DNA from: Fidelibacterota bacterium
GTDB lineage: Bacteria > Fidelibacterota > Marinisomatia > SCGC-AAA003-L08 > GCA-2689995
Reading direction: 5' to 3'
Length of the DNA stretch: 64,000 nt
NCBI GenBank assembly: GCA_014381925.1
Contig: JACNKR010000025.1
Coordinates: 18,506-82,505, forward strand
The notes under the pieces are model-generated. The model was not told the DNA's origin. It made no database searches and saw only the letters and a program-made list of their open reading frames with translations. How positions within the stretch are numbered: position 1 is the first letter of the stretch; every line of letters starts with the position of its first letter. The translations under genes and the position numbers were made by a program. Below, piece by piece: positions 11,139 through 27,256 of the stretch.

Positions 11139-12647
11139 ATGATTAGAAAATTTTATATTCCATTTTTATTTTTGACTTCAATTTTTGCACAGGATGTGGA
11201 TTCTACAATGAGTTTATCTGGAGGTTTAGGCTCAATTACGATAGATGGTGAAATTTATAACCAAATTGCACTTCGACCTGTAATCCCAATTGGAAAACTT
11301 GGAATTGGTCTTGATTTTTATTTAAATATTAACTCAAGTGGTGATATTCATACTGCGGATTATGACTTTTCAGATTTTGAATCTGGAGCAAGAACGGTTT
11401 TAGATAAAATTAGATTTATAAAATATGGAAATACACAGGACCCCTTTTATTTTACATTTGGAAATTTAGAGAATGTTGTTTTAGGGAATGGTATTTTGGT
11501 GAATGGTTACACAAATGCACTTGAATACCCATCAAATAGAAAACTTGGATTAAATTTTGGTGCTGATTTTGGAACTCTTGGATTAGAATTTGTAGTTAGT
11601 GATTTTAAATATGAACCTGGCCTTGTAGGTGCAAGATTAAATTATAAAATTCTCCCAGGTTTAGATATGGGACTTTCAATTGCAACAGATGTAAACCAAT
11701 TTGCTGGTTTATCTAATAAAGATGGTGATGATTATCCTGATGTTTATGACCATTTTCCTGATGATTCAGATAAATGGGACGACGCACTAGAAGAACAGGG
11801 TGATTGGCAGGATATTTATGAACTTTATGTCAACTCTAATGACATATCCTTTAATGATTGGTTTAAGTCATTACCTCTTAATCATAATTCATATAATCCT
11901 GCAACAAGTGAATCAAATGATATTGTTGGATTTAGTTTTGATTTAAATTATAAATTAAATGAAAAATTAAAATTATATTCACAGGCAGGTACATTAATTT
12001 CAAATGAATTAGATTTGTTTGGAAGTAATGGGGGAATTAATTATTCACCAGGAGTAGGACTTGTACCGATTGGATTATCTTATCATTTAGGTCCTTTTCA
12101 ATTTTTAGCAGAATACCGTTATAATACAAGATATTTCTTATATAATTATTGGGATAGATCGTATGAAATTAATAGAGCAACCGTTTCATTTGCTAATATA
12201 AATGATGAAGAAGATGAAATAATAACAAAAGAAAATTCATTAATTAATTATGGAAAAATGAATGGAGTTTATTCTCAATTAACGGGAAATATTGCAAATC
12301 TATTATTTTTAACTACTTCATATACTTATATGGATGGTGAGGTAAAAAATAATGAAGATGTATTTGAAACACAAAATAATAATTCATTTACAACTATTCT
12401 ATCATTAAAAGAGAATTTAATTCCTCGATTAAAAAAGGCAGAAGCATTTTATCAACAAAAAAATGTACCAAATCCATTTGATTTTGAATTTACTGAAACA
12501 TCACTTTATGGGTTTGTTATTGGTTTTCAAGTCACACAAGATATGATAATTCAATATAAATCTACAACTTCATTTGTTATGTCTGAAAATGGTGTCGATT
12601 ATGAACCAATAAGTACAATTTTAGTTGAAACTCAATTTGCGTTTTAA
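11139..12647 (+). CDS. secreted, probably outer-membrane beta-barrel protein with an acidic Ca-binding-like insert
   Basis: Signal peptide, alternating beta-strand pattern, terminal Phe (ETQFAF), DGDDYPDVYDHFPDD insert. Track start is 11130. Confidence 0.5.
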   Translation: MIRKFYIPFLFLTSIFAQDVDSTMSLSGGLGSITIDGEIYNQIALRPVIPIGKLGIGLDFYLNINSSGDIHTADYDFSDFESGARTVLDKIRFIKYGNTQDPFYFTFGNLENVVLGNGILVNGYTNALEYPSNRKLGLNFGADFGTLGLEFVVSDFKYEPGLVGARLNYKILPGLDMGLSIATDVNQFAGLSNKDGDDYPDVYDHFPDDSDKWDDALEEQGDWQDIYELYVNSNDISFNDWFKSLPLNHNSYNPATSESNDIVGFSFDLNYKLNEKLKLYSQAGTLISNELDLFGSNGGINYSPGVGLVPIGLSYHLGPFQFLAEYRYNTRYFLYNYWDRSYEINRATVSFANINDEEDEIITKENSLINYGKMNGVYSQLTGNIANLLFLTTSYTYMDGEVKNNEDVFETQNNNSFTTILSLKENLIPRLKKAEAFYQQKNVPNPFDFEFTETSLYGFVIGFQVTQDMIIQYKSTTSFVMSENGVDYEPISTILVETQFAF

Positions 12648-12650
12648 AAT

Positions 12651-15236
12651 ATGATTTCATCTTCAAAAGTTAGGCAACAGTTTATTGATTTTTTTAAATC
12701 TAAAGAACATCATTTTGTTCGGAGCTCTCCTGTTTTCCCCATAGATGATCCTACATTATTATTTACAAATGCAGGAATGAATCAATTTAAACCCATATTC
12801 CTAGATCAAGAAAAGCCAAAATATAACAGAGTCGCAAATTCTCAAAAATGTATTAGAGCCAGTGGGAAGCATAATGACCTTGAAGAAGTTGGCGTTGATA
12901 ATTATCACCATACTTTTTTTGAAATGTTGGGTAATTGGTCATTTGGAAATTATTACAAAAATGAGTCAATAAAGTGGGCATGGGAATTATTAACAGAAGT
13001 GTGGAAACTTGATAAATCCAAATTGTGGGTTTCAATTTATAAAGATGATGATGAAACAGGTGAAATTTGGAAACAGATAACGGATGTAGATCCTAATCGA
13101 ATTTTAAAGTTTGATAAAAAAGAAAATTTTTGGGAAATGGGTGAGACAGGCCCATGTGGACCATGTACAGAAATTCATTATTATACAGGGAATGACCCCC
13201 AAAACCAAGATTCTAAAGGTGTAAATGTTTTACCAGAGTATCGTGAGATTTGGAATTTAGTTTTTATTCAATATAATAGGAAATTGGATCAATCTCTCGA
13301 AAATTTACCTGCAACTCATGTTGATACTGGAATGGGATTAGAACGAATTACGGCAATTATAAATGGCTATGAGTCTAATTATGATACTGATTTATTTCAA
13401 CCAATAATAAAAGCCGTTGAGAAAATTAGTGGAAAATCAATTCAATTTGAAGATGGTATTCCTCATCGGGTAATTGCAGATCATTTAAGAATGATAAGTT
13501 TTTCAATTGCAGATGGTATAATGCCTGGGAATGAAGGTCGTGGTTATGTTGTGAGACGAATCTTAAGAAGAGCATTAAAATTTGGACGGTCATTAGGTTT
13601 AAATAATCCATTTTTACATTTATTAGTTGATGGTTTAGTAGAGCAAATGAAAGATGCATTTCCTGAAATTTATGAAAAACAAAGCCATGTAAAAAAAGTA
13701 ATTTTAGCAGAAGAAAAATCATTTAATAGAACCTTGGATAAAGGATTAGAAATTTTTGAAAACATATGTAATACATTAGATGGTAATATAATATCAGGAG
13801 AAGATGCTTTTAAATTATATGATACGTATGGGTTTCCATTAGATTTAACTGAATTATTAGCTCGAGAGAAAGATCTATCTGTTGATATATCATTGTTTAA
13901 TAAATGTATGGAGCAACAAAGAACTCGAGCAAGAGAAGCTGGGAAATTTGGGGTAAAAGTAAATGAAAATCAGTGGGTTCAGATTGAAGGGTTAAATAAA
14001 AGTAATTTTATTGGTTATTCTGAAAATAGTTCAGTAAGTAGAATTATTAAATATAGAATTAATAAAAATGAATCTGAAATTGTATTGAACAATACTCCAT
14101 TTTATTCTGAATCTGGTGGACAAGTTGGTGATAAAGGCAAAATTTATAATAATGATTTCTCATTTAATGTTCTAAATACTCAAAAATTAGGTGATGATAT
14201 TATTCATTATGGGCGTTTCATTAATGGAAAACTCTTAGATGACTTTACGGTAACGGCAGAAATAGATCTAAGTTTAAGACAGTCGACTGAACATAATCAT
14301 ACAGCAACACATTTATTACATAAAGCACTTAAAACAAATTTAGGCGATCATGTTAATCAGGCTGGCTCATTAGTTTCACCTGAAAAATTGAGATTTGATT
14401 TGACACATTATGAACAAATTTCAAAAAATGATTTAATGATGATTGAAAAAGATGTTAATTCGATTATTTTACAAAATATAAAATTGAATATACTTGAAAC
14501 ATCATTTGATAGTGCAAGAAAAGATGGAGCCGAAGCACTTTTTGGTGAAAAATATGGTGATTTAGTTCGCGTAGTAGATGTACCTGGCTATTCAAAAGAA
14601 TTATGTGGTGGAACGCATGTTAGTAGAACTGGAGATATTGGTCTATTTAAAATAATATCAGAATCATCTCTTGCTTCAGGAATAAGAAGAATTGAAGCTG
14701 TTACTGGAAAAAATGCAATAGATAGAGTCGTTATTAATGAACAAATTTTAGATGAGATTTCATCTGTATTAAATACATCAAATGATAAGGTAATTATTCA
14801 TATTGGTGATTTGAAAAATAAAATTAAATTTTTGGAAAAAGAATTAAATCGAATAAATAAGAAAAACCAAGTAGAATTAATTTCTGATTTAATGAGGAAT
14901 GCGATTGAGATTAATGAAAATAAATTAATTTTTTCTATGGTGGAAAATATTTCAGATTTAAAAGAATTTGGGATTCAAGTTTTAGATAAATGTGTTAAAA
15001 AAACAGCAATTTTATTAGGGTTAAAATTGAATAATAAACCGCTTGTCTTTTGCGGTGTAACTCCTGATCTTATTGGTAAGATTCATGCAGGTAACATAGT
15101 TAGAGAGCTTGGATCAAGAATGGGCGGAGGCGGAGGTGGTAAACCTAATTTAGCAACAGCTGGAGGAAAAGATCTTAATTTATTAGATGATACATTGGAA
15201 TTTGGAAAAAATAAATTGATTGAATTATTAAAATGA
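12651..15236 (+). CDS. alaS: alanine--tRNA ligase
   Basis: LLFTNAGMNQFK, HHTFFEMLGN, DTGMGLER, editing HTATH and ELCGGTH, C-terminal GGGGG. Confidence 0.98.
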   Translation: MISSSKVRQQFIDFFKSKEHHFVRSSPVFPIDDPTLLFTNAGMNQFKPIFLDQEKPKYNRVANSQKCIRASGKHNDLEEVGVDNYHHTFFEMLGNWSFGNYYKNESIKWAWELLTEVWKLDKSKLWVSIYKDDDETGEIWKQITDVDPNRILKFDKKENFWEMGETGPCGPCTEIHYYTGNDPQNQDSKGVNVLPEYREIWNLVFIQYNRKLDQSLENLPATHVDTGMGLERITAIINGYESNYDTDLFQPIIKAVEKISGKSIQFEDGIPHRVIADHLRMISFSIADGIMPGNEGRGYVVRRILRRALKFGRSLGLNNPFLHLLVDGLVEQMKDAFPEIYEKQSHVKKVILAEEKSFNRTLDKGLEIFENICNTLDGNIISGEDAFKLYDTYGFPLDLTELLAREKDLSVDISLFNKCMEQQRTRAREAGKFGVKVNENQWVQIEGLNKSNFIGYSENSSVSRIIKYRINKNESEIVLNNTPFYSESGGQVGDKGKIYNNDFSFNVLNTQKLGDDIIHYGRFINGKLLDDFTVTAEIDLSLRQSTEHNHTATHLLHKALKTNLGDHVNQAGSLVSPEKLRFDLTHYEQISKNDLMMIEKDVNSIILQNIKLNILETSFDSARKDGAEALFGEKYGDLVRVVDVPGYSKELCGGTHVSRTGDIGLFKIISESSLASGIRRIEAVTGKNAIDRVVINEQILDEISSVLNTSNDKVIIHIGDLKNKIKFLEKELNRINKKNQVELISDLMRNAIEINENKLIFSMVENISDLKEFGIQVLDKCVKKTAILLGLKLNNKPLVFCGVTPDLIGKIHAGNIVRELGSRMGGGGGGKPNLATAGGKDLNLLDDTLEFGKNKLIELLK

Positions 15237-16693
15237 AATTAACAGAAACACCTATCATATTTACTCAATCCAAAAAAAATGTATGTGGATTTCAATTACC
15301 ATCTACATGTATTCCAGAATTAAATCCAGAATCAATTATAGATCAATCGATGTTAAGAAATAAACCTGCTCGATTACCTGAGATATCTGAACCTGAGGTC
15401 GTTAGGCATTTCACTAACCTTTCTGTAAAAAATCATCATGTAGATAAAGATTTTTATCCATTGGGTTCATGTACAATGAAATATAATCCAAAAATAAATG
15501 ATAAATTAGCAAGTCATTCAAAGATTATTTCTTTACACCCAGATGAAAAAGATTCAAATATACAAGGTGCATTAAAAATTATGTATGAGCTTGAAATTTT
15601 CTTATCAAAAATGACAGGTATGAATCGATTTACTCTTCAACCAACAGCAGGTTCACAAGGAGAATTTGTTGGTTTATTAATGATGCAAAAATACCATCGA
15701 AAGAAAGGAAATAATAAAAAATATATAATTATTCCTGAAACTGCTCATGGAACAAATCCAGCGAGTGTAGTCTTAGGTGGGTATAAAACTTTACAAGTTC
15801 AATCTAATGATAATGGACGTGTTGATATTGAACATTTAAAATCATTAATGTCAGACCAAATTGCAGGAATGATGTTAACCCAACCAAATACATTGGGATT
15901 ATTTGAAGATGAAATTGAAGAAATAACGAAAATAATACATCAATATGATGGATTAATGTATATGGATGGTGCAAACTTAAATGCATTAATAGGCCTTGTA
16001 AAGCCTGAAAAAATGGGGTTTGATATATTACATATAAATCTTCACAAAACATTCTCTACACCTCATGGAGGCGGTGGGCCAGGTGCAGGACCAATTGGTG
16101 TTGTAGAGAACTTAGTCGAGTTTTTACCTATTCCTATGATTAAAAAAGTTGATGATAGGTATTCTTGGGACTTTGATTATCCAAATTCAATTGGGCAGAT
16201 TCACACATTTTATGGAAATTATGGTATTCTTGTTAGGGCTTGGGCATATATTCGCACATTAGGCGAAGAGGGGGTAAAGCAGATGACTCGCCAAGCCATA
16301 ATAAATGCAAATTATTTAAAGAAAAAAATAGAAGATGTATATGAAGTTCCTTTTTCAGAAGGTACATTACATGAATTTGTTGCTTCTGGTAAAGCTCAGA
16401 AAAAACGAGGGATTAAAGTTTTAGATATTGCTAAAAGTTTATTAGACTATGGATATCATGCGCCAACTATTTATTTCCCAATTAATATTCCTGAGGCAAT
16501 GATGATTGAACCAACGGAATCTGAAACAAAAGAAACATTAGATGCTTTTGCACAGGCATTAATTGAAATCGATAAAAAAATTACTGAAAACCCCCAAGAA
16601 TTATTAGATGCGCCAATTACAACTCCTGTGAAAAGGTTGAATGAAACAAAAGCAAATAGAGAACTTAATTTAAAATTTGATTATGAAATTTAG
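15233..16693 (+). CDS. gcvPB: glycine dehydrogenase (decarboxylating) subunit 2
   Basis: YPLGSCTMKYNP, AHGTNPAS, LHKTFSTPHGGGGPG, MIEPTESE. Confidence 0.95.
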   Translation: MKLTETPIIFTQSKKNVCGFQLPSTCIPELNPESIIDQSMLRNKPARLPEISEPEVVRHFTNLSVKNHHVDKDFYPLGSCTMKYNPKINDKLASHSKIISLHPDEKDSNIQGALKIMYELEIFLSKMTGMNRFTLQPTAGSQGEFVGLLMMQKYHRKKGNNKKYIIIPETAHGTNPASVVLGGYKTLQVQSNDNGRVDIEHLKSLMSDQIAGMMLTQPNTLGLFEDEIEEITKIIHQYDGLMYMDGANLNALIGLVKPEKMGFDILHINLHKTFSTPHGGGGPGAGPIGVVENLVEFLPIPMIKKVDDRYSWDFDYPNSIGQIHTFYGNYGILVRAWAYIRTLGEEGVKQMTRQAIINANYLKKKIEDVYEVPFSEGTLHEFVASGKAQKKRGIKVLDIAKSLLDYGYHAPTIYFPINIPEAMMIEPTESETKETLDAFAQALIEIDKKITENPQELLDAPITTPVKRLNETKANRELNLKFDYEI

Positions 16694-17108
16694 AAAAGAG
16701 AATAATCTTTATTTTATTTCACTTGAACCAGGAGATATGATTAATTCTTCATTTGAAAAATTAGCTGAAATTGAAAAATTAAATTCTGGTTGGATTCAAG
16801 GAATTGGAGCTGTGACAAATCTTGAAATGGGATATTATGAACTTATTTCAAAATCTTATATTCGGAAAAATTTTAATGATGATTATGAATTAACCAGTTT
16901 GAGCGGAAATATTACAATTAAAGATGGTAAATTATTTTCACACACACATATTAATTTTAGTGATAGTAAATTTAATGTCTTTGGGGGTCATTTATTTGAA
17001 GGTGAAATTTCAGCTGCAGGCGAATTTATTATGACTGTTGGTGAAAATTTTATAAATAGAAAGTTTGATAATTTTACTGGTCTTGCTTTATGGTGTTTAG
17101 AAAAATGA
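16683..17108 (+). CDS. PPC domain (DUF296) protein
   Basis: GIGAV, ELTSLSGNI, HTH-INF, GGHL motifs. Confidence 0.85.
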   Translation: MKFRKENNLYFISLEPGDMINSSFEKLAEIEKLNSGWIQGIGAVTNLEMGYYELISKSYIRKNFNDDYELTSLSGNITIKDGKLFSHTHINFSDSKFNVFGGHLFEGEISAAGEFIMTVGENFINRKFDNFTGLALWCLEK

Positions 17109-17482
17109 GAAAAATAATTAAAACACAAAATGCTCCTTTAGCAATTGGAACATATTCACAAGGAGTGACATTTCAAAATTTGGTTTTTACTTCAGGACAA
17201 ATCTGTTTAAATCCTGAAACTGGAAAATTAAATAATGACACTTTTAAAAATGAAGTTCGACAAGTCTTGAATAATTTAAATGCTGTTTTACTTGAATCAG
17301 GGAGTGCATTAAGTCAAATTTTAAAGGTTACGGTATTTATTACTGATTTATCATTATTTTCAGAGTTAAATGAAGTTTTTTTAGAGTTTTTCCCTGAACA
17401 TCCACCGGCAAGATCAGCAGTTGAAGTTTCTGCTCTTCCAATGAATGTAAGAGTTGAAATTGAAGCAATTGGAATAATTTGA
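17105..17482 (+). CDS. ridA: RidA/YjgF enamine deaminase
   Basis: APLAIGTYSQG, SGQI, PARSAVEVSALP, VEIEAI; ATG overlaps the upstream TGA. Confidence 0.9.
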   Translation: MRKIIKTQNAPLAIGTYSQGVTFQNLVFTSGQICLNPETGKLNNDTFKNEVRQVLNNLNAVLLESGSALSQILKVTVFITDLSLFSELNEVFLEFFPEHPPARSAVEVSALPMNVRVEIEAIGII

Positions 17483-17820
17483 ATATTAGAAGTTTTATTT
17501 TAGTCATATTCATTTCAATTTTTTTTACACAAGAAACATTTATTGATTCTACTCAAATAAAAAATCCAACCTTATCTTGGAAACTTAGTTTAATTCCTGG
17601 ATTAGGTCAAATTTATAATGGTAATTTTTATAAATCATTTATTATTAATTCTGCTTTAGGGCTTTCAGTTGTAGAGATGAATCAAAATATCAAAAATATA
17701 CATAAAAGAAATACATGGGGGTGGTGGATTTTTGGAATTTATACACTTGGAATTTTAGATGCCTATGTAGATGCTCATTTAACTTCATTTCCAATATATA
17801 AAAAAAAGAAAAAAGAATAA
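17479..17820 (+). CDS. small membrane protein (DUF5683-like)
   Basis: SLIPGLGQIYNG and ILDAYVDAHL motifs. Confidence 0.6.
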   Translation: MNIRSFILVIFISIFFTQETFIDSTQIKNPTLSWKLSLIPGLGQIYNGNFYKSFIINSALGLSVVEMNQNIKNIHKRNTWGWWIFGIYTLGILDAYVDAHLTSFPIYKKKKKE

Positions 17821-19193
17821 TGTGTGGTATAATCGGTTTATATAATAACCCAGAAGCAGGTACTTTTGCTTATATGGGGCTTTATGCTCAACAACATCGT
17901 GGGCAGGAAGGTGCTGGAATAGTTACATGTGATGGCGATAAAATGTATAGTCATACAGGACAAGGACTTGTTTCTGATGTTTTTTCAGATTCTAAAATAT
18001 TTGATAATTTAAAAGGACATTATGCAATTGGTCATACACGATATTCAACAACTGGAGAAAATAATGCAACCAATGTAGGCCCATTATTATTTAATTTAGG
18101 TGACTCTTTTATTTCAATTGCTCATAATGGTAATTTAGTAAACTTAACTTCCATTCGAAAAAAACTTCAAAAAAATGGGGCAATTTTTCAAACCACTACT
18201 GACACTGAAATCATCATTCATTTACTCGCCCGAAGAACTGAGCCAACATTAACAAAACGGATTGCAGGAACACTAAAAGAAATTGAAGGTGCATTTTCAA
18301 TTATTATTATTTCTAAAGAAGGGCTACATATAGCGAGAGATACAAAAGGGATAAGACCCCTTTGTTTTGGGAAGCTAAATGATACAATTATTGTTGCATC
18401 TGAAACTTGTGCATTAGATTTATTAGGTGCACAATATATTAGAGATATCAATCCTGGAGAGTTATTAACTGTTAATAATTTTGGGGAAAGTTCAATACAA
18501 TTTGAAACTCCAGATAAAAATAAAAGCCATTGTATTTTTGAATATATATATTTTAGTAGGCCAGATTCCCAAGTCTTTGGAGAAAATGTAGATAAAATGA
18601 GGCGGAAATTTGGTAAAACACTCGCAGAAGAATCTACAATTGACTCCGCAGACATTGTAATATCAGTTCCAGATTCAAGTAATACATGTGCAATGGGTTA
18701 TGCAGCAACTTCAAATACAAAATATGAAATTGGGTTAATTAGAAATCATTATGTTGGCCGAACGTTTATTTTTCCAAATCAAAGGTTAAGAAGCCTAAAT
18801 GTTCGCTTAAAGTTTAATACAGTAAAAGGTGTATTAGATAACCGGGAAGTTGTATTAGTCGATGATTCAATTGTAAGAGGAACGACATTGAGGAAACTAT
18901 CTCAGTTATTAAAAGATGCGGGTGTTAAAAAAGTTCATGTTAGAATTAGTTCACCTCCCGTTCGGTATCCATGCCATTATGGGATGGATTTTCCTACAAA
19001 AGATGAATTGGCTGCAAATAAACACACTGTGAATGAATTAGCAGAAATAATAAAAGTTGATACATTAAATTATTTAACAATTGAAGGATTGCTAAAATCA
19101 GTTTCATTAAATAAAGATGATTATTGTACGGCTTGTTTTTCAGGTGAATACCCCATAGAAATAAAGGATAAAGTTGGTAAAGAAATTTTTTAG
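17820..19193 (+). CDS. purF: amidophosphoribosyltransferase
   Basis: N-terminal MCGI, QHRGQE, GHTRYST, VPDS, VDDSIVRGTT, Fe-S cysteines (PCHYG, CTACF). Confidence 0.97.
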   Translation: MCGIIGLYNNPEAGTFAYMGLYAQQHRGQEGAGIVTCDGDKMYSHTGQGLVSDVFSDSKIFDNLKGHYAIGHTRYSTTGENNATNVGPLLFNLGDSFISIAHNGNLVNLTSIRKKLQKNGAIFQTTTDTEIIIHLLARRTEPTLTKRIAGTLKEIEGAFSIIIISKEGLHIARDTKGIRPLCFGKLNDTIIVASETCALDLLGAQYIRDINPGELLTVNNFGESSIQFETPDKNKSHCIFEYIYFSRPDSQVFGENVDKMRRKFGKTLAEESTIDSADIVISVPDSSNTCAMGYAATSNTKYEIGLIRNHYVGRTFIFPNQRLRSLNVRLKFNTVKGVLDNREVVLVDDSIVRGTTLRKLSQLLKDAGVKKVHVRISSPPVRYPCHYGMDFPTKDELAANKHTVNELAEIIKVDTLNYLTIEGLLKSVSLNKDDYCTACFSGEYPIEIKDKVGKEIF

Positions 19194-20133
19194 AGATCAC
19201 CCTGTTCATAGAAAAATAGTTCCATTTTTGGATTATTTATTTTTACTCCGCCCAACATATTTTTTTGCAATTTGGATTGTCTTTTGTGCAGGAATGTTTT
19301 CAAGTCAATTTATACATGATAGCAACTTAATTTGGGGTGAGAAATTGAGTCTTAATTCTATTTTATTAATTATTGGGTTATCATCATTTACTTCAGCCTG
19401 TTTTATAAATTGGCAACTAAATTCTGAAACAAATTTTCCTTTACAAAAAAAGGTATTTTTAATTAATAAAAAAATTAATTCCAAGAATGCAATGATAGTT
19501 CAATATATTCTTTTTACTTTTGGTGCAATACTCATTGGAATTTCAGATTTCATTATGCTTCCCTTCCTTGTCTTAATACTTTATTTTTGCACATCAATTG
19601 TAAATAAAAATAAATTTAAACCTAATATCGTAAGTATTATAGCATTATCTATTTTAATTTATTTAATGGGTTACTTTCATAAACACTTTTTATTAAGCAC
19701 TCAGTTTGAATTTAAAAATATACAAATTATTTTTTCATATCTCTTTTTTGCAATTATTATTGCTATTTTAATTCAAAAAGATAGGGATTTCGATAGCGAT
19801 ACTAATTCAGTGTTGAATTATATTGTTTTAATATTCTTATGTATTTTAGCTGGAATAAATGGATTTTTATTAAATGATCCTATTTCATCGACAGCATCAA
19901 TTTCGATACTACCATTTTTAATTATGGTTTTAATTCGAAATAGTCATATTGATTTATTAAGAGCAATTCGATATTCATTATTAATTTTAGCTGTTTTTAT
20001 TTTTTCAACATATCCACAATTTATTTGGATTTCTATTTGTGTTTATATATTGAGTAAATATTATTATTGGCATCGCTTTGATTTTCATTATCCAAAATTA
20101 GTATTAGAAAATGATCGTAATAACACCAAATAA
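19174..20133 (+). CDS. UbiA-superfamily prenyltransferase-like membrane protein with degenerate Asp-rich motifs
   Basis: YLFLLRP N-terminal motif, about 9 TM segments; NWQLNSETN at the position of NDxxDxxxD. Confidence 0.55.
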   Translation: MVKKFFRDHPVHRKIVPFLDYLFLLRPTYFFAIWIVFCAGMFSSQFIHDSNLIWGEKLSLNSILLIIGLSSFTSACFINWQLNSETNFPLQKKVFLINKKINSKNAMIVQYILFTFGAILIGISDFIMLPFLVLILYFCTSIVNKNKFKPNIVSIIALSILIYLMGYFHKHFLLSTQFEFKNIQIIFSYLFFAIIIAILIQKDRDFDSDTNSVLNYIVLIFLCILAGINGFLLNDPISSTASISILPFLIMVLIRNSHIDLLRAIRYSLLILAVFIFSTYPQFIWISICVYILSKYYYWHRFDFHYPKLVLENDRNNTK

Positions 20134-20293
20134 ATGTGATTTTTGCGGAGCATGTGTTGCTGTTTGTCCTGTTGATTGTATCGATTTAAAAGAAGCGGAT
20201 ATTTCAATTAGACATGACGTCTGCATTGACTGTGATTTATGTGCTAATATATGCCCTATAGAAGTTTTGGAGCCAATTTATGATGAAAAGTAG
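20111..20293 (+). CDS. 2[4Fe-4S] ferredoxin
   Basis: CDFCGACVAVCP and CIDCDLCANICP. Confidence 0.93.
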   Translation: MIVITPNKCDFCGACVAVCPVDCIDLKEADISIRHDVCIDCDLCANICPIEVLEPIYDEK

Positions 20294-21461
20294 TTATGAT
20301 GTTGTAGTTGTTGGTGGTGGACCTTCTGGTTCAATGTCTGCAAAATTAGCTGCAGAAGGCGGTGTAAGTGTTTGTCTTTTAGAAAAAGATAGAGATATTG
20401 GGTATCCCGTTAGATGTGGTGAGGCAATTGGAGATTCAGGGTTAAGAAAATTTGTGGAACCTAAAGAATCTTGGTTTGCAGCTCATTTAAATAGCTTCAG
20501 CATGACTGCTCCCAATGGTACAAGTATTACTGCCGATTTTACATCAGATAAAGGTTATATTTTAAACCGAAGAGTTTTTGACTATGACTTAGCCCGACTC
20601 GCATCAGAAAAGGGTGCTGAAATTTTTACAAGAGCCTATGTATATGGATTAATTATTGAAGATGGATTTGTTAGGGGTGTAAAATTAGAATATTTAGGTG
20701 AGAAGAAAGAAATTCGTGCAAAAATTGTAATTGGTGCAGATGGTGTTGAATCACGAGTAGGGAGATGGGCAGGAATAAGAACTCAATTAAAAATGAAAGA
20801 TATGGAATCAGGATTCCAATATACACTTGCTAATGTAAATATTCCTCAAAATAGAATGGATTTTTTTGTGGGTAAAACATATGCACCAGGCGGTTATGTA
20901 TGGATATTTCCAAAGGGTGATGGAATAGCAAATGTTGGAATAGGTGTGAGCGGTACATATAGTAAAGAAAAATCTCCTCGAAAATTATTGGATAAATTTG
21001 TAAAAGAAAAATTTCCTGAAGCATCATTATTAACGACTGTATGTGGTGGAATTCCTTGTGATAAACCATTAAAGAAACCTGTTAAATCTGGATTAATATT
21101 AGTTGGAGATGCCGGTCATCAGGTGAATCCTGTTACTGGAGGAGGTATTTCTTCAGGAATGACTGGAGGATGGATTGCAGGACAAGTATCTGCTGATTTA
21201 ATTCGTAAAAACAAATTAGATGAAAAATCATTGACTGTTTATACAGAGTGGATTCATAAAGAATTTGGAAAAAACTATTCAAGAGTTTACAATATAAAAA
21301 ATGCAATTAGTCAATTTACAGATGAAGACTTAAATAATATTGCAGATAAAGTTAAAAAGCTACCCCGAGAGAAAAGAACATTGACACGAATTTTCTCTAC
21401 GGCACTTATAAAAAAACCATTACTTGTTATTGATGTAATAAAAGTATTTGCAGGAATTTAA
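20280..21461 (+). CDS. geranylgeranyl reductase family FAD oxidoreductase
   Basis: GGGPSG, PVRCGE, GADG, PGGYVWIFPKG, GGIP, VGDAGHQVNPVTGGGI. Confidence 0.88.
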   Translation: MMKSSYDVVVVGGGPSGSMSAKLAAEGGVSVCLLEKDRDIGYPVRCGEAIGDSGLRKFVEPKESWFAAHLNSFSMTAPNGTSITADFTSDKGYILNRRVFDYDLARLASEKGAEIFTRAYVYGLIIEDGFVRGVKLEYLGEKKEIRAKIVIGADGVESRVGRWAGIRTQLKMKDMESGFQYTLANVNIPQNRMDFFVGKTYAPGGYVWIFPKGDGIANVGIGVSGTYSKEKSPRKLLDKFVKEKFPEASLLTTVCGGIPCDKPLKKPVKSGLILVGDAGHQVNPVTGGGISSGMTGGWIAGQVSADLIRKNKLDEKSLTVYTEWIHKEFGKNYSRVYNIKNAISQFTDEDLNNIADKVKKLPREKRTLTRIFSTALIKKPLLVIDVIKVFAGI

Positions 21462-21462
21462 T

Positions 21463-24297
21463 ATGCAAATTGCAACTTTATTAAAGTCTATTAACCTGAA
21501 TGAATTTGTAGCTTTTGATTTAGAAACAACGGGGTTAAACGCTAATACAGACTCAATTATTGAAATCTCAGCATATCGATTTATTGACGGTCTTCCACAT
21601 TCTACTTTTACAACTTTAATTAATCCAAATAGAACAATTCCTGTTTTTATTACTGAATTAACAGGTATTAATAATTCAATGGTAAAAAAATCACCATTTA
21701 TTAAAGATGCACTTCCAGATCTACTTGAATTTTTTGGTAATTCACCAATTGTTGGACAAAATATTGGGTTTGATTTTGGTTTTTTAAATAATGCATTGGC
21801 GATAGAAAATAAACCTTTATATAAAAATAGTAGAATTTATGATACTTCTACATTGTCAAGATTTTGCTTATTTACAAACGATGATTTGTCTTTAAGTGGT
21901 ATATCTGATTTTTATGGATTGAATACAGACGGTGCACATCGGGCTGAAATGGATACTTTAAATACAGGTAAAGTATTTGTTGAACTGATTAAAGAAACTG
22001 CTTACAATACAATAGAACAACTAGAACAATGTGTAACAACTTTAAAAAATGAAAATTCATATAATTATTATTTATTTAAGAATCTTGTTGAGTTACAATT
22101 AAAATCAAATTCAGTTAATGGAATTGGGAAATCAGAATTAAATTCACAATTAAATTCTTCTTTTTTTAAATTTGAAAATAATGAAAGCGAAATTGATAAA
22201 TTAGACATTGGCTTAATTTTGGATGAAGGTGGGTTAATAGAAAAAAATTGGGATAAATTTGAATCTCGAAAAAATCAAGTTTCTTTTTCAGAAGATATTT
22301 TATCTTCATTTAATCAGCAACAAATATTATTAGGTGAGGCAGGGACAGGGTTAGGAAAATCATTTAGTTATTTAACAGCATCCTTAATTTATTCTCTTCA
22401 AAATAAAATACCTGTAATTATTTCTACTTATACAAAACATTTACAAGATCAACTTTTTAATAAGGATATTCCTAATTTTTCTAAATTAACAGGAATTCCA
22501 GTTACTGCAATTATTTTAAAGGGGCGTCATAATTATCTATGTAAAACTCGTTTAGAACAATTTGTAAAATATAGATTACCTAAGTTGAATAAAAAAGATA
22601 GGGAGTTATTTTTACCAATAATTTCATGGAGTAAAAATACATTATCTGGTGATATTGAAGAATGTCCTGCATTTCCTATAAGTAGGGCTTTAAATATATG
22701 GAATGCCATACGCAGTGAACCTGGGTTTTGTACAACATCGAGATGTAAAGATCACGATGGATGCTTTTATGGACCTATACGAAAAAAAACATCTCAAGTT
22801 AATTTAATTATTGTAAATCATGCATTATTTTGTATTGAATTAAATAGAGAAAATTCTATTTTACCTTCAGGTTTTGTTTATGTTATTGATGAGGGACATA
22901 ATTTTGTTAAATCTGCTCGTGACCAATTAACAATTAAATTAAATGCAGATTCTGCAAATGAAGTTATTTCATTTTATAAATTTGAAACGGATTTGTTTGG
23001 TAATACAATAATAAAAGCGGTGAGTCAACATGCTGGTGAATATACTGAACATGTAAATGAAATAGCAGATTATGCCATTAAATTAAAAAAATATATTGAT
23101 ACATTTTTTAGTGAATTTTCAAAGAAATCAAATTTAAATGGAGAATTATCAAATTTACAGTATGAGAAAAACTTTATATTAAATAATGCTACAAAAATTT
23201 ATGACAAATTAAATTATTCACCTGAAAATTGCTTAGATGAAATTTTATCATTTTCTAAATTAACTAAATCACTTGAGAACTCGCTTAAAAGTGTAAAAGA
23301 TTTTCCTCAAAGCTTAATAATTGAATTGTCCTCACAAAATAAATATTTAGAAGATTTGGCACAAACTTTTTTACGAATTTCTCATTTGTTAGATGAAGAT
23401 ATTGTTTGGTCTTCTTTTCGAAATAGATTTGGTCAAGTTCATTGTTCTATAAATTGTGCCCCAAAAGATGTTGGCATTTTTTTAAGAGATGCATTATTTG
23501 GTAGAGAGGCAGGAGGAGTAATTTGTTCTGCAACACTTGCATTAAATTCATCCTTTCAATTTACAAAAGATTCAATGGGGATTTCAGATTCACATATTGT
23601 TGAAAAATTAAATACAGTTGAATATAAATCTCCTTTCTTCTATGAAGACCAAGTTGAATTATGGGTATATGATTCTTTTGACAAGGTAAATAGTTTCTCT
23701 TTTATTCAAACAATTGGAAATCAAATAAATGAATTAGCTCAACTGCATAATAATCGTATATTAGTTCTCTGTACTTCATACGATCAAGTAAAAAAATTAC
23801 GAGATATTGTGAAACCATGTTATGATTATTTAGGTCGGAAAGTTTTCGCCCAAACTATTGGTCATAGCCGTAGAGCGATGATTAGAGGTTATACAAATAC
23901 ACCAAGTTCGATTTTAATAGGCACGATGAGTTTTTGGGAAGGGGTTGATTTTCCAGGAGAATTAGTTGAGATTTTGATGATATTTAAAATCCCATTTGAT
24001 AATCCAACAGATCCAATATTATTAACAGAAGTAGAAAATTATAAGAAAAAAGGAAAAAATCCATTTATGGATTTTCAAATCCCAACGGCTACGGTTAAAT
24101 TTAAACAAGGATTTGGCCGGTTAATAAGAAGTATTAATGATAATGGTATGTGTATATTGACTGATCCTCGCTTATTAAAAGCTCAGTATGGGAAATTTAT
24201 TTTAAATGCATTACCTTTAGCATATAAACCATATAAATCAATTTCAGAGATAAATAATTCAACTATTTTATTTCGAAAGGAAACTGTTAATGAATGA
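21463..24297 (+). CDS. dinG: DnaQ-like 3'-5' exonuclease fused to a DinG-family helicase
   Basis: FDLETTG, HRAEMD; EAGTGLGKS, KGRHNYLC, IDEGHN, FWEGVDFPG, QGFGRLIR. ATG at 21463 follows CAGGA. Confidence 0.88.
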   Translation: MQIATLLKSINLNEFVAFDLETTGLNANTDSIIEISAYRFIDGLPHSTFTTLINPNRTIPVFITELTGINNSMVKKSPFIKDALPDLLEFFGNSPIVGQNIGFDFGFLNNALAIENKPLYKNSRIYDTSTLSRFCLFTNDDLSLSGISDFYGLNTDGAHRAEMDTLNTGKVFVELIKETAYNTIEQLEQCVTTLKNENSYNYYLFKNLVELQLKSNSVNGIGKSELNSQLNSSFFKFENNESEIDKLDIGLILDEGGLIEKNWDKFESRKNQVSFSEDILSSFNQQQILLGEAGTGLGKSFSYLTASLIYSLQNKIPVIISTYTKHLQDQLFNKDIPNFSKLTGIPVTAIILKGRHNYLCKTRLEQFVKYRLPKLNKKDRELFLPIISWSKNTLSGDIEECPAFPISRALNIWNAIRSEPGFCTTSRCKDHDGCFYGPIRKKTSQVNLIIVNHALFCIELNRENSILPSGFVYVIDEGHNFVKSARDQLTIKLNADSANEVISFYKFETDLFGNTIIKAVSQHAGEYTEHVNEIADYAIKLKKYIDTFFSEFSKKSNLNGELSNLQYEKNFILNNATKIYDKLNYSPENCLDEILSFSKLTKSLENSLKSVKDFPQSLIIELSSQNKYLEDLAQTFLRISHLLDEDIVWSSFRNRFGQVHCSINCAPKDVGIFLRDALFGREAGGVICSATLALNSSFQFTKDSMGISDSHIVEKLNTVEYKSPFFYEDQVELWVYDSFDKVNSFSFIQTIGNQINELAQLHNNRILVLCTSYDQVKKLRDIVKPCYDYLGRKVFAQTIGHSRRAMIRGYTNTPSSILIGTMSFWEGVDFPGELVEILMIFKIPFDNPTDPILLTEVENYKKKGKNPFMDFQIPTATVKFKQGFGRLIRSINDNGMCILTDPRLLKAQYGKFILNALPLAYKPYKSISEINNSTILFRKETVNE

Positions 24298-25810
24298 ATT
24301 TATAATTGAAAATAAAAATTATAAAATATCTGATTTTGATTTTTTTCTTTCTAATAATCCAATGGTAGTACTTTCAAAAGAATCACAAAAGTTAATTAAT
24401 GATTCTAGAGAACGGTTGAACCATGCAGTTAAAAGTGGGCAAACTATTTATGGTGTGAATACAGGATTTGGAAAATTAAGCCAAGTTAAAATTTCAGATG
24501 ATAATATTTCAAAATTACAAGAAAATTTAATTTTATCACATGCTACAGGAATTGGTTCCCCAATTAATGACAATCTAGTAAAACTTATTATATTAACCAA
24601 AATTATAGGTCTTTCTAAAGGATATAGTGGGGTAAGAATAGAAATTGTAGAACGACTAATTGATTTATTAAATTTTGATTGCCTACCAATAATTCCATCC
24701 CAGGGATCAGTAGGGGCAAGTGGTGATTTAGCACCTTTAGCTCATATGACATTACCATTGTTAGGATTTTCCAATTTAAAATTTAATGGGGAGTTATCGC
24801 CTGCTAAAGATGTTTTGAATAAGTTAAAAATAAAAGTTATTCAGTTAAGTTATAAAGAAGGATTAGCATTAATTAATGGTACTCAATTTTCAACAGCACA
24901 TGGAATCTATGCTTCGATTCAAGCAAAAAAAATTATAAAAAATTGTGATATTATTGGAGCCTTATCCGTAGATGCACTTCTTGGTACTCATCGAGCATAT
25001 AAAAGTGATATTCATAAATTAAAACCACATTGTGGGCAATTAGATTCTGCAGAAAATTTATATAAACTTCTCCAAGATAGTGAAATAAGAAAATCACATG
25101 ATGGATGCGAGCGTGTACAAGATATGTATTGTTTGAGATGTATGCCTCATGTACATGGTGCAAGTAGAGAGAATTTAAATTATTTATTCAATGTTGTTGA
25201 AACAGAAGTAAATTCAGTGAGTGATAATCCGTTGATATTAGATGATGGGGAAGTTATTTCTGCTGGGCATTTTCATGCACAGTCAATTGGTCAGGCCATG
25301 GATTGTTCTGCAATTGCATTGACTACTTTGGGTGCAATAAGTGAACGCCGAATTTCGACACTTGTAAATGGAGATTTTGGTCTTCCAACATTTTTAGTTG
25401 ATAACCCGGGGCTAAATTCTGGATTTATGATTACACAAATTACTTCTGCTTCAATTGCATCTGAAAATAAAAGTTTATCAAGTCCATCAACCGTAGATAG
25501 TATTCCAACAGGTGCAGGTCAAGAGGATTTTGTAAGTATGGCTCCTTATGCAGGGCGAAAATTATTGAAAATTGTTGAAAATGTAGAACGCATACTGGGT
25601 ATTGAATTAATTACAGCACTTCAAGGAATGGATTATAGAGGTAATTTATTATCAAGTCCACCACTTGAAAATGTTCGTCAACAGGTACGAAAAATAATTC
25701 CAAAATTAACGACAGACCGATTTATGGAAGCCGATATTTTAAACGCTATAAAATTAGTTAATAATGGTAATTTAATTGGGTGGGTTGAAGACCGACTTAA
25801 ATTAAATTAA
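24290..25810 (+). CDS. hutH: histidine ammonia-lyase
   Basis: YGVNTGFG, MIO-forming GASGDLAPL, KEGLALINGT, QDMYCLRC, GQEDFVSM. Confidence 0.95.
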   Translation: MNEFIIENKNYKISDFDFFLSNNPMVVLSKESQKLINDSRERLNHAVKSGQTIYGVNTGFGKLSQVKISDDNISKLQENLILSHATGIGSPINDNLVKLIILTKIIGLSKGYSGVRIEIVERLIDLLNFDCLPIIPSQGSVGASGDLAPLAHMTLPLLGFSNLKFNGELSPAKDVLNKLKIKVIQLSYKEGLALINGTQFSTAHGIYASIQAKKIIKNCDIIGALSVDALLGTHRAYKSDIHKLKPHCGQLDSAENLYKLLQDSEIRKSHDGCERVQDMYCLRCMPHVHGASRENLNYLFNVVETEVNSVSDNPLILDDGEVISAGHFHAQSIGQAMDCSAIALTTLGAISERRISTLVNGDFGLPTFLVDNPGLNSGFMITQITSASIASENKSLSSPSTVDSIPTGAGQEDFVSMAPYAGRKLLKIVENVERILGIELITALQGMDYRGNLLSSPPLENVRQQVRKIIPKLTTDRFMEADILNAIKLVNNGNLIGWVEDRLKLN

Positions 25811-25824
25811 ACCGGTCTTACAAA

Positions 25825-26076
25825 TTATAAAGAGGCAACATGCCGCATTAATCTTGACTTTTGATTTGCAGCTTTATTTTTATGTATTATGCCTTTTCTT
25901 GCAGTTTTGTCTATTACTGAACATGAAGAAGATAATGCAGATTGTGCAGTTTCTTTATTTTCAGCATTAATTACATTTTTAATTGCGGACTTTAACACTG
26001 ATTTATAATGTTTATTCCGTTGATATCTTTTAAGGTTTTGTTTAACCCTTTTAAGTTCTGATCCTTTTGCACTCAT
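25825..26076 (-). CDS. rpsT: 30S ribosomal protein S20
   Basis: RN-x3-KS, IDK-x3-KGIIHKNKAANQKSRL. Confidence 0.93.
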   Translation of the reverse strand: MSAKGSELKRVKQNLKRYQRNKHYKSVLKSAIKNVINAENKETAQSALSSSCSVIDKTARKGIIHKNKAANQKSRLMRHVASL

Positions 26077-26275
26077 ATAATGCTATATTTCCTTTTAAAT
26101 TATAGACTAATAATTTATTAATTATATACGGTATAAATAAAATGAATTATTAGAATTAAATTATAAATTTTTAATATAGAAAATTTAATTATTTGTAAAT
26201 TATAGATTATAGAAAAACAATAAAGAATAAAAAAGATATTAAATATAATAATTAAAACTTTTAAGAAGGAGAATT

Positions 26276-27256
26276 TTGAATAAAAAAGAAAGTAATATAA
26301 CAATTTTTTTAATTATGATGGCTTCGTTAATTTTTTGTGTGCCAAATGAAAATGAACTAATTGGAAAAATAGTAAATTCTAATAATAATGAGATTATTTC
26401 AGTTGATAAGTTAATTGATATAATGAAATATACAGATGTGATTTATCTTGGAGAAAAACACGATAATATTGATCATCATAAACATCAAATTGAAATTATT
26501 AAATTATTAATTTCTGAAGGTAAAAAACCTGTTATTGGGTTTGAATTTTTTTATCAACACCAAACAAGTGATTTAATGAAATATATTAATGGTATAAAAT
26601 CCCCGTTTCAACATGGAGAAGAAAACCCAGAAAAAGATGAAGAAAAATTGAGAGAAAAACTGGGGTGTAAACACAAAACGGATGAAGATTGGAATTTCTA
26701 TTTCGATTTAGTAAATTTAGCAAAAGAAAATAAATTGACTGTTTTTGGTGCAGACTTACCCAAGGGAATCGTTTCACGAATTTCTCGTGAAGGACTTAAT
26801 ACGTTAACACCTGTGGAATTAAACCAATTATCATTTACCAATTATATTGACACAAATTATCAAAAATTAATGGTAAAAAAGTTTAAAGATAGTCACTGTG
26901 GTTGGGTGCCAAAAGATAATTTTGAAAAATTATATCATACATGGGTTGCGCGAAATGATGCAATGGCTAAAGCAATAACCATGACGGCTAAAAATAATAA
27001 TAATCCTGTAATTTTAATTGTAGGGGGGGGGCATGTAGAACATAATATGGGCATTTTTGAAAGAGTAAATTATTTAAATCCAAATTTAAACCAATTGAAT
27101 TTAGGGTTTAAAGAAATTTCAATTGAAGAATCTGAATTAAAGGATTATTATAACTCAACGATAATAAATGATCAAAAATATCTACCATTACATGAATATT
27201 TTTGGTTTACGGATAGAAAAGACGATAAAGATCCGTGTGAAGGATTTAAATTTTAA
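26276..27256 (+). CDS. ChaN/EreA (Tiki-superfamily) periplasmic protein
   Basis: DVIYLGEKHDN-x2-HH-x2-Q, HCG, RNDAMA, GGGHV; TTG start after AAGGAG. Confidence 0.75.
   Translation: MNKKESNITIFLIMMASLIFCVPNENELIGKIVNSNNNEIISVDKLIDIMKYTDVIYLGEKHDNIDHHKHQIEIIKLLISEGKKPVIGFEFFYQHQTSDLMKYINGIKSPFQHGEENPEKDEEKLREKLGCKHKTDEDWNFYFDLVNLAKENKLTVFGADLPKGIVSRISREGLNTLTPVELNQLSFTNYIDTNYQKLMVKKFKDSHCGWVPKDNFEKLYHTWVARNDAMAKAITMTAKNNNNPVILIVGGGHVEHNMGIFERVNYLNPNLNQLNLGFKEISIEESELKDYYNSTIINDQKYLPLHEYFWFTDRKDDKDPCEGFKF

Follow-up and report, generated by a model that had tools for sequence, protein, structure and literature searches.

A Probable UbiA Pseudoenzyme Beside a Ferredoxin and an Archaeal-Type Geranylgeranyl Reductase in Marinisomatota

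Introduction

Do three overlapping genes for a UbiA-like membrane protein, a ferredoxin, and a geranylgeranyl reductase (GGR) constitute an archaeal-type isoprenoid lipid module in a bacterium of the phylum Marinisomatota (SAR406, Marinimicrobia)? The genes lie in a stretch of 64,000 nucleotides, hereafter the window, from a Fidelibacterota bacterium (GTDB lineage Bacteria; Fidelibacterota; Marinisomatia; SCGC-AAA003-L08; GCA-2689995), corresponding to positions 18,506 to 82,505 of the forward strand of contig JACNKR010000025.1 (assembly GCA_014381925.1). A first-pass annotation of the window had proposed such a module, with MenJ-like reduction of a quinone side chain as the alternative. The three overlapping genes were present as described there, all on the plus strand, with the ferredoxin, the reductase, and its PGGYVWIFPKG motif read directly from the open reading frames (ORFs). 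Here, we report that an intact ferredoxin–GGR pair very probably stands beside a UbiA-family protein that is catalytically dead, and we consider what the reductase would act upon and why the degenerate protein persists.

Results and Discussion

Loss of Catalytic Motifs From the UbiA-Like Protein

The UbiA-like protein has no match in Pfam or NCBIfam, with no PF01040 match even at an E-value of 10 and no match to an NCBIfam UbiA model, and homology searches relate it to PF01040 proteins only transitively (E-values of 2e-54 to 8e-33), its close orthologs having 97 to 51% identity and its PF01040-bearing relatives 29-37%. A search without a word index yielded 186 representatives of 50%-identity clusters for the family. 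An AlphaFold2 model based on 99 family sequences has a predicted local distance difference test score (pLDDT) of 91.4 and a predicted template modeling score (pTM) of 0.91. Its top 16 Foldseek matches are nearly all UbiA-family structures (probability 1.00, TM-scores 0.47-0.64), led by the digeranylgeranylglyceryl phosphate (DGGGP) synthase (DGGGPS) of M. jannaschii (7BPU/6M31), A. fulgidus UbiA (4TQ3), A. pernix UbiA (4OD4), and UBIAD1 (TM-scores 0.53-0.64), and ESM Atlas groups the protein with UbiA clusters at 0.91. The model predicts a protein of UbiA fold and ancestry in which the nine-helix bundle is kept; the original label "UbiA-like" can be retained for fold and transitive homology, but not for any direct match to a family model.

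The PF01040-bearing relatives retain an NQxxDxxxD signature, a YNxxPFxWK loop, and PDxxGD followed by TFP..FG. In the first Asp-rich motif of the window protein (NxxxDxxxD, loop 2-3), W80, S84, and F88 replace the N, D, and D of active relatives, a loss also seen in a same-genus genome and in metagenomic orthologs. The YNxxPFxWK middle loop is six residues shorter in the window protein and its close orthologs, and the second Asp-rich motif (DxxxD, loop 6-7) is lost with the deletion of ~11 residues of the PDxxGD..TFP..FG segment. With all three motif-1 residues (N, D, D) lost, together with the YNxxPFxWK loop and PDxxGD, the machinery for binding Mg2+–prenyl diphosphate is, to judge from the alignments, gone from the protein, which cannot fill the canonical role of DGGGP synthase suggested for it in the first-pass annotation; nor does it match the DGGGPS equivalog models NF009521, NF009522, and NF009512. 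The protein was accordingly rejected as a DGGGPS on motif loss, this role being largely refuted by sequence. An alignment artifact behind the assignment of members as "degenerate" was also considered, by regular-expression re-scoring of 97 loci, and was rejected (discordant at 1/97).

The nine-helix fold is common to the window protein and to known UbiA enzymes (DGGGPS, 6M31/7BPU; A. fulgidus UbiA, AfUbiA, 4TQ3; chlorophyll synthase, 9SAU), whereas the window protein is without both Asp-rich motifs and has shortened cap loops. Its subfamily further differs from those enzymes in having an N-terminal helix and a C-terminal SKYYYWHRF..HYP tail of its own. Active members of the subfamily keep both Asp-rich motifs and match known UbiA enzymes at E-values of 2e-18 to 5e-16. 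No curated equivalog model fits the subfamily: active members reach 40-53 bits on the DGGGPS models, and their profile stands roughly as far from AfUbiA as from DGGGPS or chlorophyll synthase.

Recurrent Catalytic Loss Within a Conserved Array

The phylum sample comprised 201 genomes, and the loci fetched from it were combined with 49 further species-level loci to give 83 unique loci after deduplication; related genomes are not independent, and the gene distributions across the phylum sample are to be read as patterns rather than statistics. The further loci were collected by the pattern SKYYYWHR, so that this clade alone was sampled, and nearly all named records among them are Ca. Neomarinimicrobiota.

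The UbiA-like family is widespread in the phylum sample, with the recurrent gene order DUF5683–purF–UbiA-family gene–ferredoxin–GGR–dinG. In almost every related locus purF stands before the UbiA-family gene, and dinG follows GGR, or directly follows the UbiA-like gene where ferredoxin and GGR have been deleted. The array from purF to dinG is ancient in Marinisomatota. All five key motif residues are kept, with ferredoxin and GGR present, at 38/83 unique loci; a further 25/83 share the state of the window, namely a degenerate UbiA with ferredoxin and GGR; and at 14/83 a degenerate UbiA stands directly before dinG, the ferredoxin and GGR genes having been cleanly deleted. The state was not determinable at 6/83 loci, mostly through cuts at contig ends, and in one of these (G039) the GGR lies on another contig. 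An active UbiA was shown to be without ferredoxin and GGR at none of the loci (0/83), four loci not being scorable on this point.

The 99 full-length representatives of the family divide into 50 active and 49 degenerate proteins. In a FastTree phylogeny with the motif columns left out, the degenerate state entails nine changes by parsimony, at least four of which are forced by well-supported branches, and catalytic loss would on this phylogeny have recurred about four to nine times. The UbiA-like gene appears to descend from an active prenyltransferase subfamily specific to the phylum, and the three states read as a one-way series, from active UbiA with ferredoxin and GGR, through dead UbiA with ferredoxin and GGR (the window), to dead UbiA alone. 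Given that an active UbiA is never seen without the ferredoxin–GGR pair, we infer that the ancestral active enzyme used or made something tied to the reductase.

Certain loci depart from these arrangements. Shortened UbiA-like forms of 266-282 amino acids (aa), which are without profile positions ~80-130 (the motif-1 region) and are nonetheless followed by ferredoxin and GGR, occur in some families (L053-L055, L062, L065; genomes G186, G063, G170, G012, G175), and in several genomes with the shortened gene one in-frame TGA was flagged inside the match. In one locus of family f8 (L064:3982-5301, genome G047), the position of the ferredoxin and GGR is taken by a single gene for a 440-aa GGR-like protein, 26% identical to the window GGR, with no ferredoxin and with dinG following; in another (L089), purF is followed by a GGR-like gene, 25% identical to the window GGR, and then by an active UbiA. 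In family f26 the UbiA–ferredoxin–GGR array is followed on the same contig, after ~5 kb, by a gene that weakly resembles MenA (110-150 bits to TIGR00751; e.g., G016:C23:189325-190167, G157:C1:108067-108909, G053:C9:68460-69302). A contig titled "Candidatus Pelagibacter sp. TMED166" (L118, NHHP01000005.1) holds a Marinimicrobia-type order of purF, dead UbiA, and dinG, and the C-terminal sequence of its UbiA-like protein is identical to that on a contig of an uncultured-bacterium metagenome-assembled genome (L117), which suggests mis-binning.

Selective Constraint on the Degenerate Protein

Measured against a same-genus genome, the ratio of nonsynonymous to synonymous substitution rates (dN/dS) is 0.19 for the UbiA-like gene, 0.08 for the ferredoxin, 0.07 for GGR, and 0.06 for purF; for dead UbiA copies at loci without ferredoxin and GGR it is 0.20-0.32. 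Across the 83 unique loci there are no frameshifts or stops in the UbiA-like frame, save a few stops flagged in genome-search matches. The gene is under purifying selection and is not a pseudogene. Active and dead members share a conserved N-terminal helix, C-terminal third, and SKYYYWHRF..HYP tail. The SKYYYWHRF..HYP motif is invariant in the close alignment of the family, and ten residues (D20, P27, W34, G40, G166, P247, P281, Y297, R301, and P307) are invariant or nearly so across the 99 family representatives, to ~20% identity.

We read the protein as a pseudoenzyme that would have retained a non-catalytic role in the membrane, possibly in prenyl-lipid binding or scaffolding. Since dead UbiA is constrained where ferredoxin and GGR are gone, the retained function would be independent of the reductase. 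A broader proposal, to which we give slightly less than an even chance, is that this UbiA subfamily, which is apparently restricted for the most part to Marinisomatota, performs a second, non-catalytic job in the membrane by way of its conserved N-terminal helix, C-terminal third, and SKYYYWHRF..HYP tail, hence its survival as a pseudoenzyme after at least four and up to ~9 catalytic losses, even after deletion of ferredoxin and GGR.

Ferredoxin and Geranylgeranyl Reductase

The two CxxCxxCxxxCP motifs of the ferredoxin place its cluster ligands at Cys 9, 12, 15, and 19 and at Cys 38, 41, 44, and 48, and Fer4, Fer4_7, and Fer4_10 matched above the Pfam cut-offs, which identifies it as a 2x[4Fe-4S] ferredoxin. 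It is encoded directly upstream of GGR in 63/83 unique related loci.

The reductase belongs to the GGR family by PF22578 (GGR_cat, 1.4e-26) and TIGR02032 (240.5 bits; cut-off 158.8), is encoded by the genome's single GGR-family gene (one match above cut-off), and has Marinimicrobia proteins as all of its best 120 homologs. The best solved relative is the Thermoplasma acidophilum digeranylgeranylglycerophospholipid (DGGGPL) reductase (PDB 3OZ2; E-value 2e-68 over residues 5-361), with which the alignment reveals shared catalytic motifs: a Cys-containing PVRCGE, RxxFD, PxGYxWxFPKGxGxANVGIG, and LVGDA. The match to the S. acidocaldarius GGR is weaker (E-value 3e-31). The window GGR scored 246 bits on the Thermoplasmatales DGGGPL reductase model NF041160 (cut-off 780), 185 bits on NF041080 (cut-off 580), 83 bits on NF041385 (cut-off 700), 132 bits on BchP/ChlP, 59.5 bits on the MenJ model NF045655 (cut-off 700), and 29 bits on FixC. 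By these hidden Markov model (HMM) scores and the PDB comparison, it groups with archaeal DGGGPL reductases and not with MenJ or FixC, the grouping that would have counted against the proposed lipid role. It is, by the NCBI criterion, to be classed as a family member and not as an equivalog of archaeal DGGGPL reductases, standing far below the NF041160 cut-off.

Pairing of a GGR with an adjacent ferredoxin had been put forward as an archaeal-like trait. The source study for the Methanosarcina acetivorans GGR with a ferredoxin of the same locus is reportedly that of Isobe et al. 2014 (PMC3911245), as cited in PMC7852524. According to the summary in PMC10821996, the M. acetivorans GGR needs the ferredoxin of its own locus as reducer in vivo, and the arrangement there, with a small ferredoxin gene adjoining a gene for an archaeal-type flavin adenine dinucleotide (FAD)-dependent GGR, is that of the window and provides a precedent for the trait. 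In contrast to M. acetivorans, the pair in the window is bacterial and lies inside a purF...dinG housekeeping array after a UbiA-family gene. By analogy, the small ferredoxin would hand low-potential electrons to the FAD of the reductase, and the reductase would then hydrogenate double bonds of geranylgeranyl chains.

Ether Lipid Genes Elsewhere in the Genome

The genome assembly (2.48 Mb, 81 contigs, 94.9% complete) encodes a geranylgeranylglyceryl phosphate (GGGP) synthase (GGGPS), for which the first-pass annotation had advised a search and without which its proposal would have been weakened. The gene is found on contig C2, with 139 bits to PF01884, and exceeds two curated cut-offs (276 bits to NF003198, cut-off 247; 187 bits to TIGR01769, cut-off 161.6); its immediate upstream neighbor is gcvPA, and xerD lies downstream (L001:1483-2229, minus strand; G000 contig C2:7374-8048). 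There are three canonical UbiA enzymes in the genome, namely heme O synthase, MenA (312 bits to NF004751, above cut-off) adjoining MenC, and a DGGGPS-like protein of 277 aa on contig C35 in which NDxxDxxxD and DxxGD are intact. Two polyprenyl synthases are encoded, one short-chain-like and the other of long-chain type. Neither CarS (no PF01864 match) nor glycerol-1-phosphate (G1P) dehydrogenase (EgsA/AraM) was found in the genome, the absence of both being unproven at 94.9% completeness; the only Fe-ADH_2 matches, a generic Fe-alcohol dehydrogenase and AroB, were rejected as G1P dehydrogenase.

This gene complement is the same as that of Ca. Cloacimonetes, for which Villanueva et al. (2021) described polyprenyl synthases, GGGPS, a UbiA resembling DGGGPS, and a GGR of Euryarchaeota-like type, CarS and G1P dehydrogenase not being found (PMC7852524); GGGPS and DGGGPS are co-localized in Ca. 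Cloacimonetes, whereas in the window genome neither is linked to the other or to GGR. Marinimicrobia were also among the Fibrobacteres-Chlorobi-Bacteroidetes (FCB) phyla with GGGPS and DGGGPS orthologs and no G1P dehydrogenase in the survey of Coleman et al. (2019) (PMC6431249). The archaeal-type isoprenoid lipid module proposed for the window can be upheld in part: an archaeal-type GGR, its ferredoxin, and a GGGPS are all present in the genome, but the module is not self-contained, the UbiA in the window being dead and the DGGGPS-like UbiA lying unlinked on C35.

In the phylum sample, matches were found to GGGPS in 147/201 genomes, to the C35-type UbiA in 156/201, to GGR in 137/201, and to MenA in 111/201. 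GGGPS and the C35-type UbiA covary by family and genus (both in 0/13 genomes of family f7, 0/5 of genus g18, 0/3 of genus g27, and 11/20 of family f10). Within f10, GGR is found in genera that also hold both of these genes (8 genomes, versus 11 for each gene), and GGR was not found in g18 and g27, which are without both. The distributions of GGR and MenA do not track each other: in family f24, 26/33 genomes have GGR and 0/33 have MenA, and conversely MenA occurs without GGR in families f5 and f25 and in genus g27.

Weighing the Explanations

Overall, the best explanation, in which we place moderate confidence, is a working ferredoxin–GGR pair that serves ether lipids next to a dead UbiA with a non-catalytic role. 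The likeliest substrates of the pair would be isoprenoid glycerol-ether lipids made through the unlinked GGGP synthase (C2) and DGGGPS-like UbiA (C35). That the substrate of GGR is an archaeal-type ether lipid is, in our estimation, about as likely as not. Several observations count against the explanation as a whole. The C35 UbiA reaches only ~130 bits on the DGGGPS equivalog models (cut-offs 269-296). The genome makes menaquinone too (MenA, MenC), so the single GGR could also serve that pathway. Genus g48 has GGR and the C35-type UbiA with no GGGPS match, and in families f5, f8, f12, and f25 GGGPS and the C35-type UbiA occur with no GGR match. The sequence DRDFDSD, left in the shortened loop 6-7 of the window protein, could in principle bind metal. 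Lastly, dead UbiA survives where ferredoxin and GGR have been deleted, so a simple role as GGR anchor is insufficient.

Of the alternatives, a MenJ-like function, in which the reductase acts on menaquinone, saturating one isoprene unit of its side chain, and is unconnected with ether lipids, would accord with MenA beside MenC, a long-chain-type polyprenyl synthase, and a single GGR-family gene in the genome, and with the reported promiscuity of GGRs (PMC10821996). It is disfavored by the low MenJ score set against those on NF041160 and TIGR02032 and by the decoupling of GGR from MenA in f24, f5, f25, and g27, and we consider this option of the first-pass annotation unlikely. That the UbiA-like protein is instead a working, divergent DGGGP synthase feeding the adjacent reductase is highly improbable: its UbiA fold with M. 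jannaschii DGGGPS as the best structural match, the weak resemblance of active relatives to the DGGGPS models, the match of the active-member profile to 6M31 (4e-17), and DRDFDSD all point that way, but the replaced motif-1 residues, the two shortened loops, and the absence of any PF01040 or NCBIfam UbiA match speak against it, DRDFDSD is not conserved (absent from orthologs at 75, 64, and 51% identity), and a better candidate with intact motifs exists on C35.

Two further alternatives concern the persistence of the dead protein. In plants GGR is anchored by LIL3, and UBIAD1 binds HMG-CoA reductase. A dead UbiA acting similarly, devoted to anchoring the soluble ferredoxin and GGR at the membrane or to presenting substrate to them, would fit the overlapping, translationally coupled gene starts, the retention of a degenerate UbiA directly before ferredoxin and GGR at 25 unique loci, the preservation of the transmembrane bundle while polar cap loops were lost, and the presence of the UBIAD1–HMGCR complex among the fold matches. 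We nevertheless regard it as doubtful, given the 14 unique loci at which dead UbiA remains intact (dN/dS 0.20-0.32) between purF and dinG after clean deletion of ferredoxin and GGR, and given genus g27, which keeps a shortened UbiA-like gene and in which GGR, GGGPS, and the C35-type UbiA were not found; a pure anchor was rejected as a sufficient explanation, constraint persisting without GGR. There is very little to recommend the UbiA-like ORF as a functionless, decaying relic, open by chance or by operon constraint (e.g., translational coupling between purF and the genes that follow it): its dN/dS is about three times that of its neighbors, deletions fall in the motif regions, and some lineages have the further shortened 266-282 aa forms, but against this stand a frame kept open in many independent lineages (dN/dS 0.19-0.32), the near-invariant N- and C-terminal motifs of the 99 representatives down to ~20% identity, a confident AlphaFold2 model, and 83 unique loci without frameshifts or stops save the few flagged.

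Locus and Genomic Context

The window is AT-rich (GC content ~28%), and the labels on named homologs and contigs are Ca. Marinimicrobia/Neomarinimicrobiota or "FCB group bacterium". The three genes (Table 1) form part of an unbroken co-directional run (12651-25810) in the order alaS, gcvPB, a PCC-domain gene, a RidA-family gene, DUF5683, purF, UbiA-like gene, ferredoxin, GGR, DnaQ/DinG helicase, and one further ORF. Successive genes overlap by 20 nt (purF/UbiA-like), 23 nt (UbiA-like/ferredoxin), 14 nt (ferredoxin/GGR), and 14 nt (GGR/dinG). The TTG start of the UbiA-like ORF is backed by an M at the aligned position in homologs and agrees with a 97%-identical 319-aa version of the protein called in other assemblies. 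A scan of 12000-26500 returned promoter and terminator counts no higher than in shuffled sequence, and thus no transcription-unit boundary can be claimed.

Table 1. Coordinates of the UbiA–ferredoxin–GGR array, its motifs, and its neighbors in the window.
Feature	Coordinates	Strand	Basis or remark
Small DUF5683 gene, before purF	17479-17820		
purF, amidophosphoribosyltransferase	17820..19193	+	TIGR01134 490 bits, above cut-off; context, conserved upstream neighbor of the array
UbiA-family membrane protein, 319 aa, TTG start, both Asp-rich motifs lost	19174..20133	+	Homology to PF01040 proteins; fold
Remnant of first Asp-rich motif in UbiA-like gene	19411..19437	+	Alignments; motif columns of related loci
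Shortened loop 6-7 of UbiA-like gene, with DRDFDSD	19774..19803	+	Alignment against active relatives
Family-specific C-terminal motif SKYYYWHRF..HYP of UbiA-like gene	20053..20094	+	Alignments
2x[4Fe-4S] ferredoxin, 60 aa	20111..20293	+	Two CxxCxxCxxxCP motifs; Fer4 family matches
Archaeal-type GGR (FAD), 393 aa	20280..21461	+	TIGR02032, PF22578, PDB 3OZ2
PGGYVWIFPKG, GGR catalytic-cavity motif, reductase residues 203-213	20886..20918	+	Direct reading; aligned to T. acidophilum GGR
DnaQ-exonuclease/DinG helicase	21448..24297	+	NF005981 554 bits; context, conserved downstream neighbor

The DUF5683 gene also precedes purF in most related loci, and conserved synteny spans at least DUF5683 to the ORF after dinG. 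The UbiA-like gene lies just 2.5 kb downstream of gcvPB (15233-16693), whose partner gcvPA adjoins the GGGP synthase on another contig; each half of the glycine dehydrogenase is thus linked to one isoprenoid-lipid gene.

Implications

That FCB bacteria, among them Marinimicrobia, have genes for archaeal lipids is already published (PMC7852524, PMC6431249). The UbiA–ferredoxin–GGR array and the dead UbiA are not mentioned in those two papers, no description of the array or of a UbiA pseudoenzyme in these bacteria was found in open-access papers and preprints, and the recurrent pseudoenzyme appears to be undescribed in the literature thus searched. For annotation, the gene beside the reductase must not be annotated or modeled as a DGGGP synthase, a competent candidate being encoded elsewhere in the genome.

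The dark ocean is rich in Marinisomatota (SAR406), which are essentially uncultured. If GGR and its dedicated ferredoxin saturate ether-linked isoprenoid lipids, there would be additional bacterial sources of "archaeal" lipid biomarkers, and the mixed-membrane idea raised for Cloacimonetes would find a further natural test in Marinisomatota. The main interest of the locus lies in the recurrent pseudoenzyme more than in the lipid hypothesis: the reductase would have been lost only after UbiA was already dead, and repeated loss of catalysis under purifying selection offers a testable system for the non-catalytic jobs of the UbiA fold. If a second, non-catalytic function of the subfamily is borne out, the protein would be a natural example of a UbiA fold turned into a scaffold or sensor that binds prenyl lipids, in a bacterial group that ranks among the most abundant of the deep ocean.

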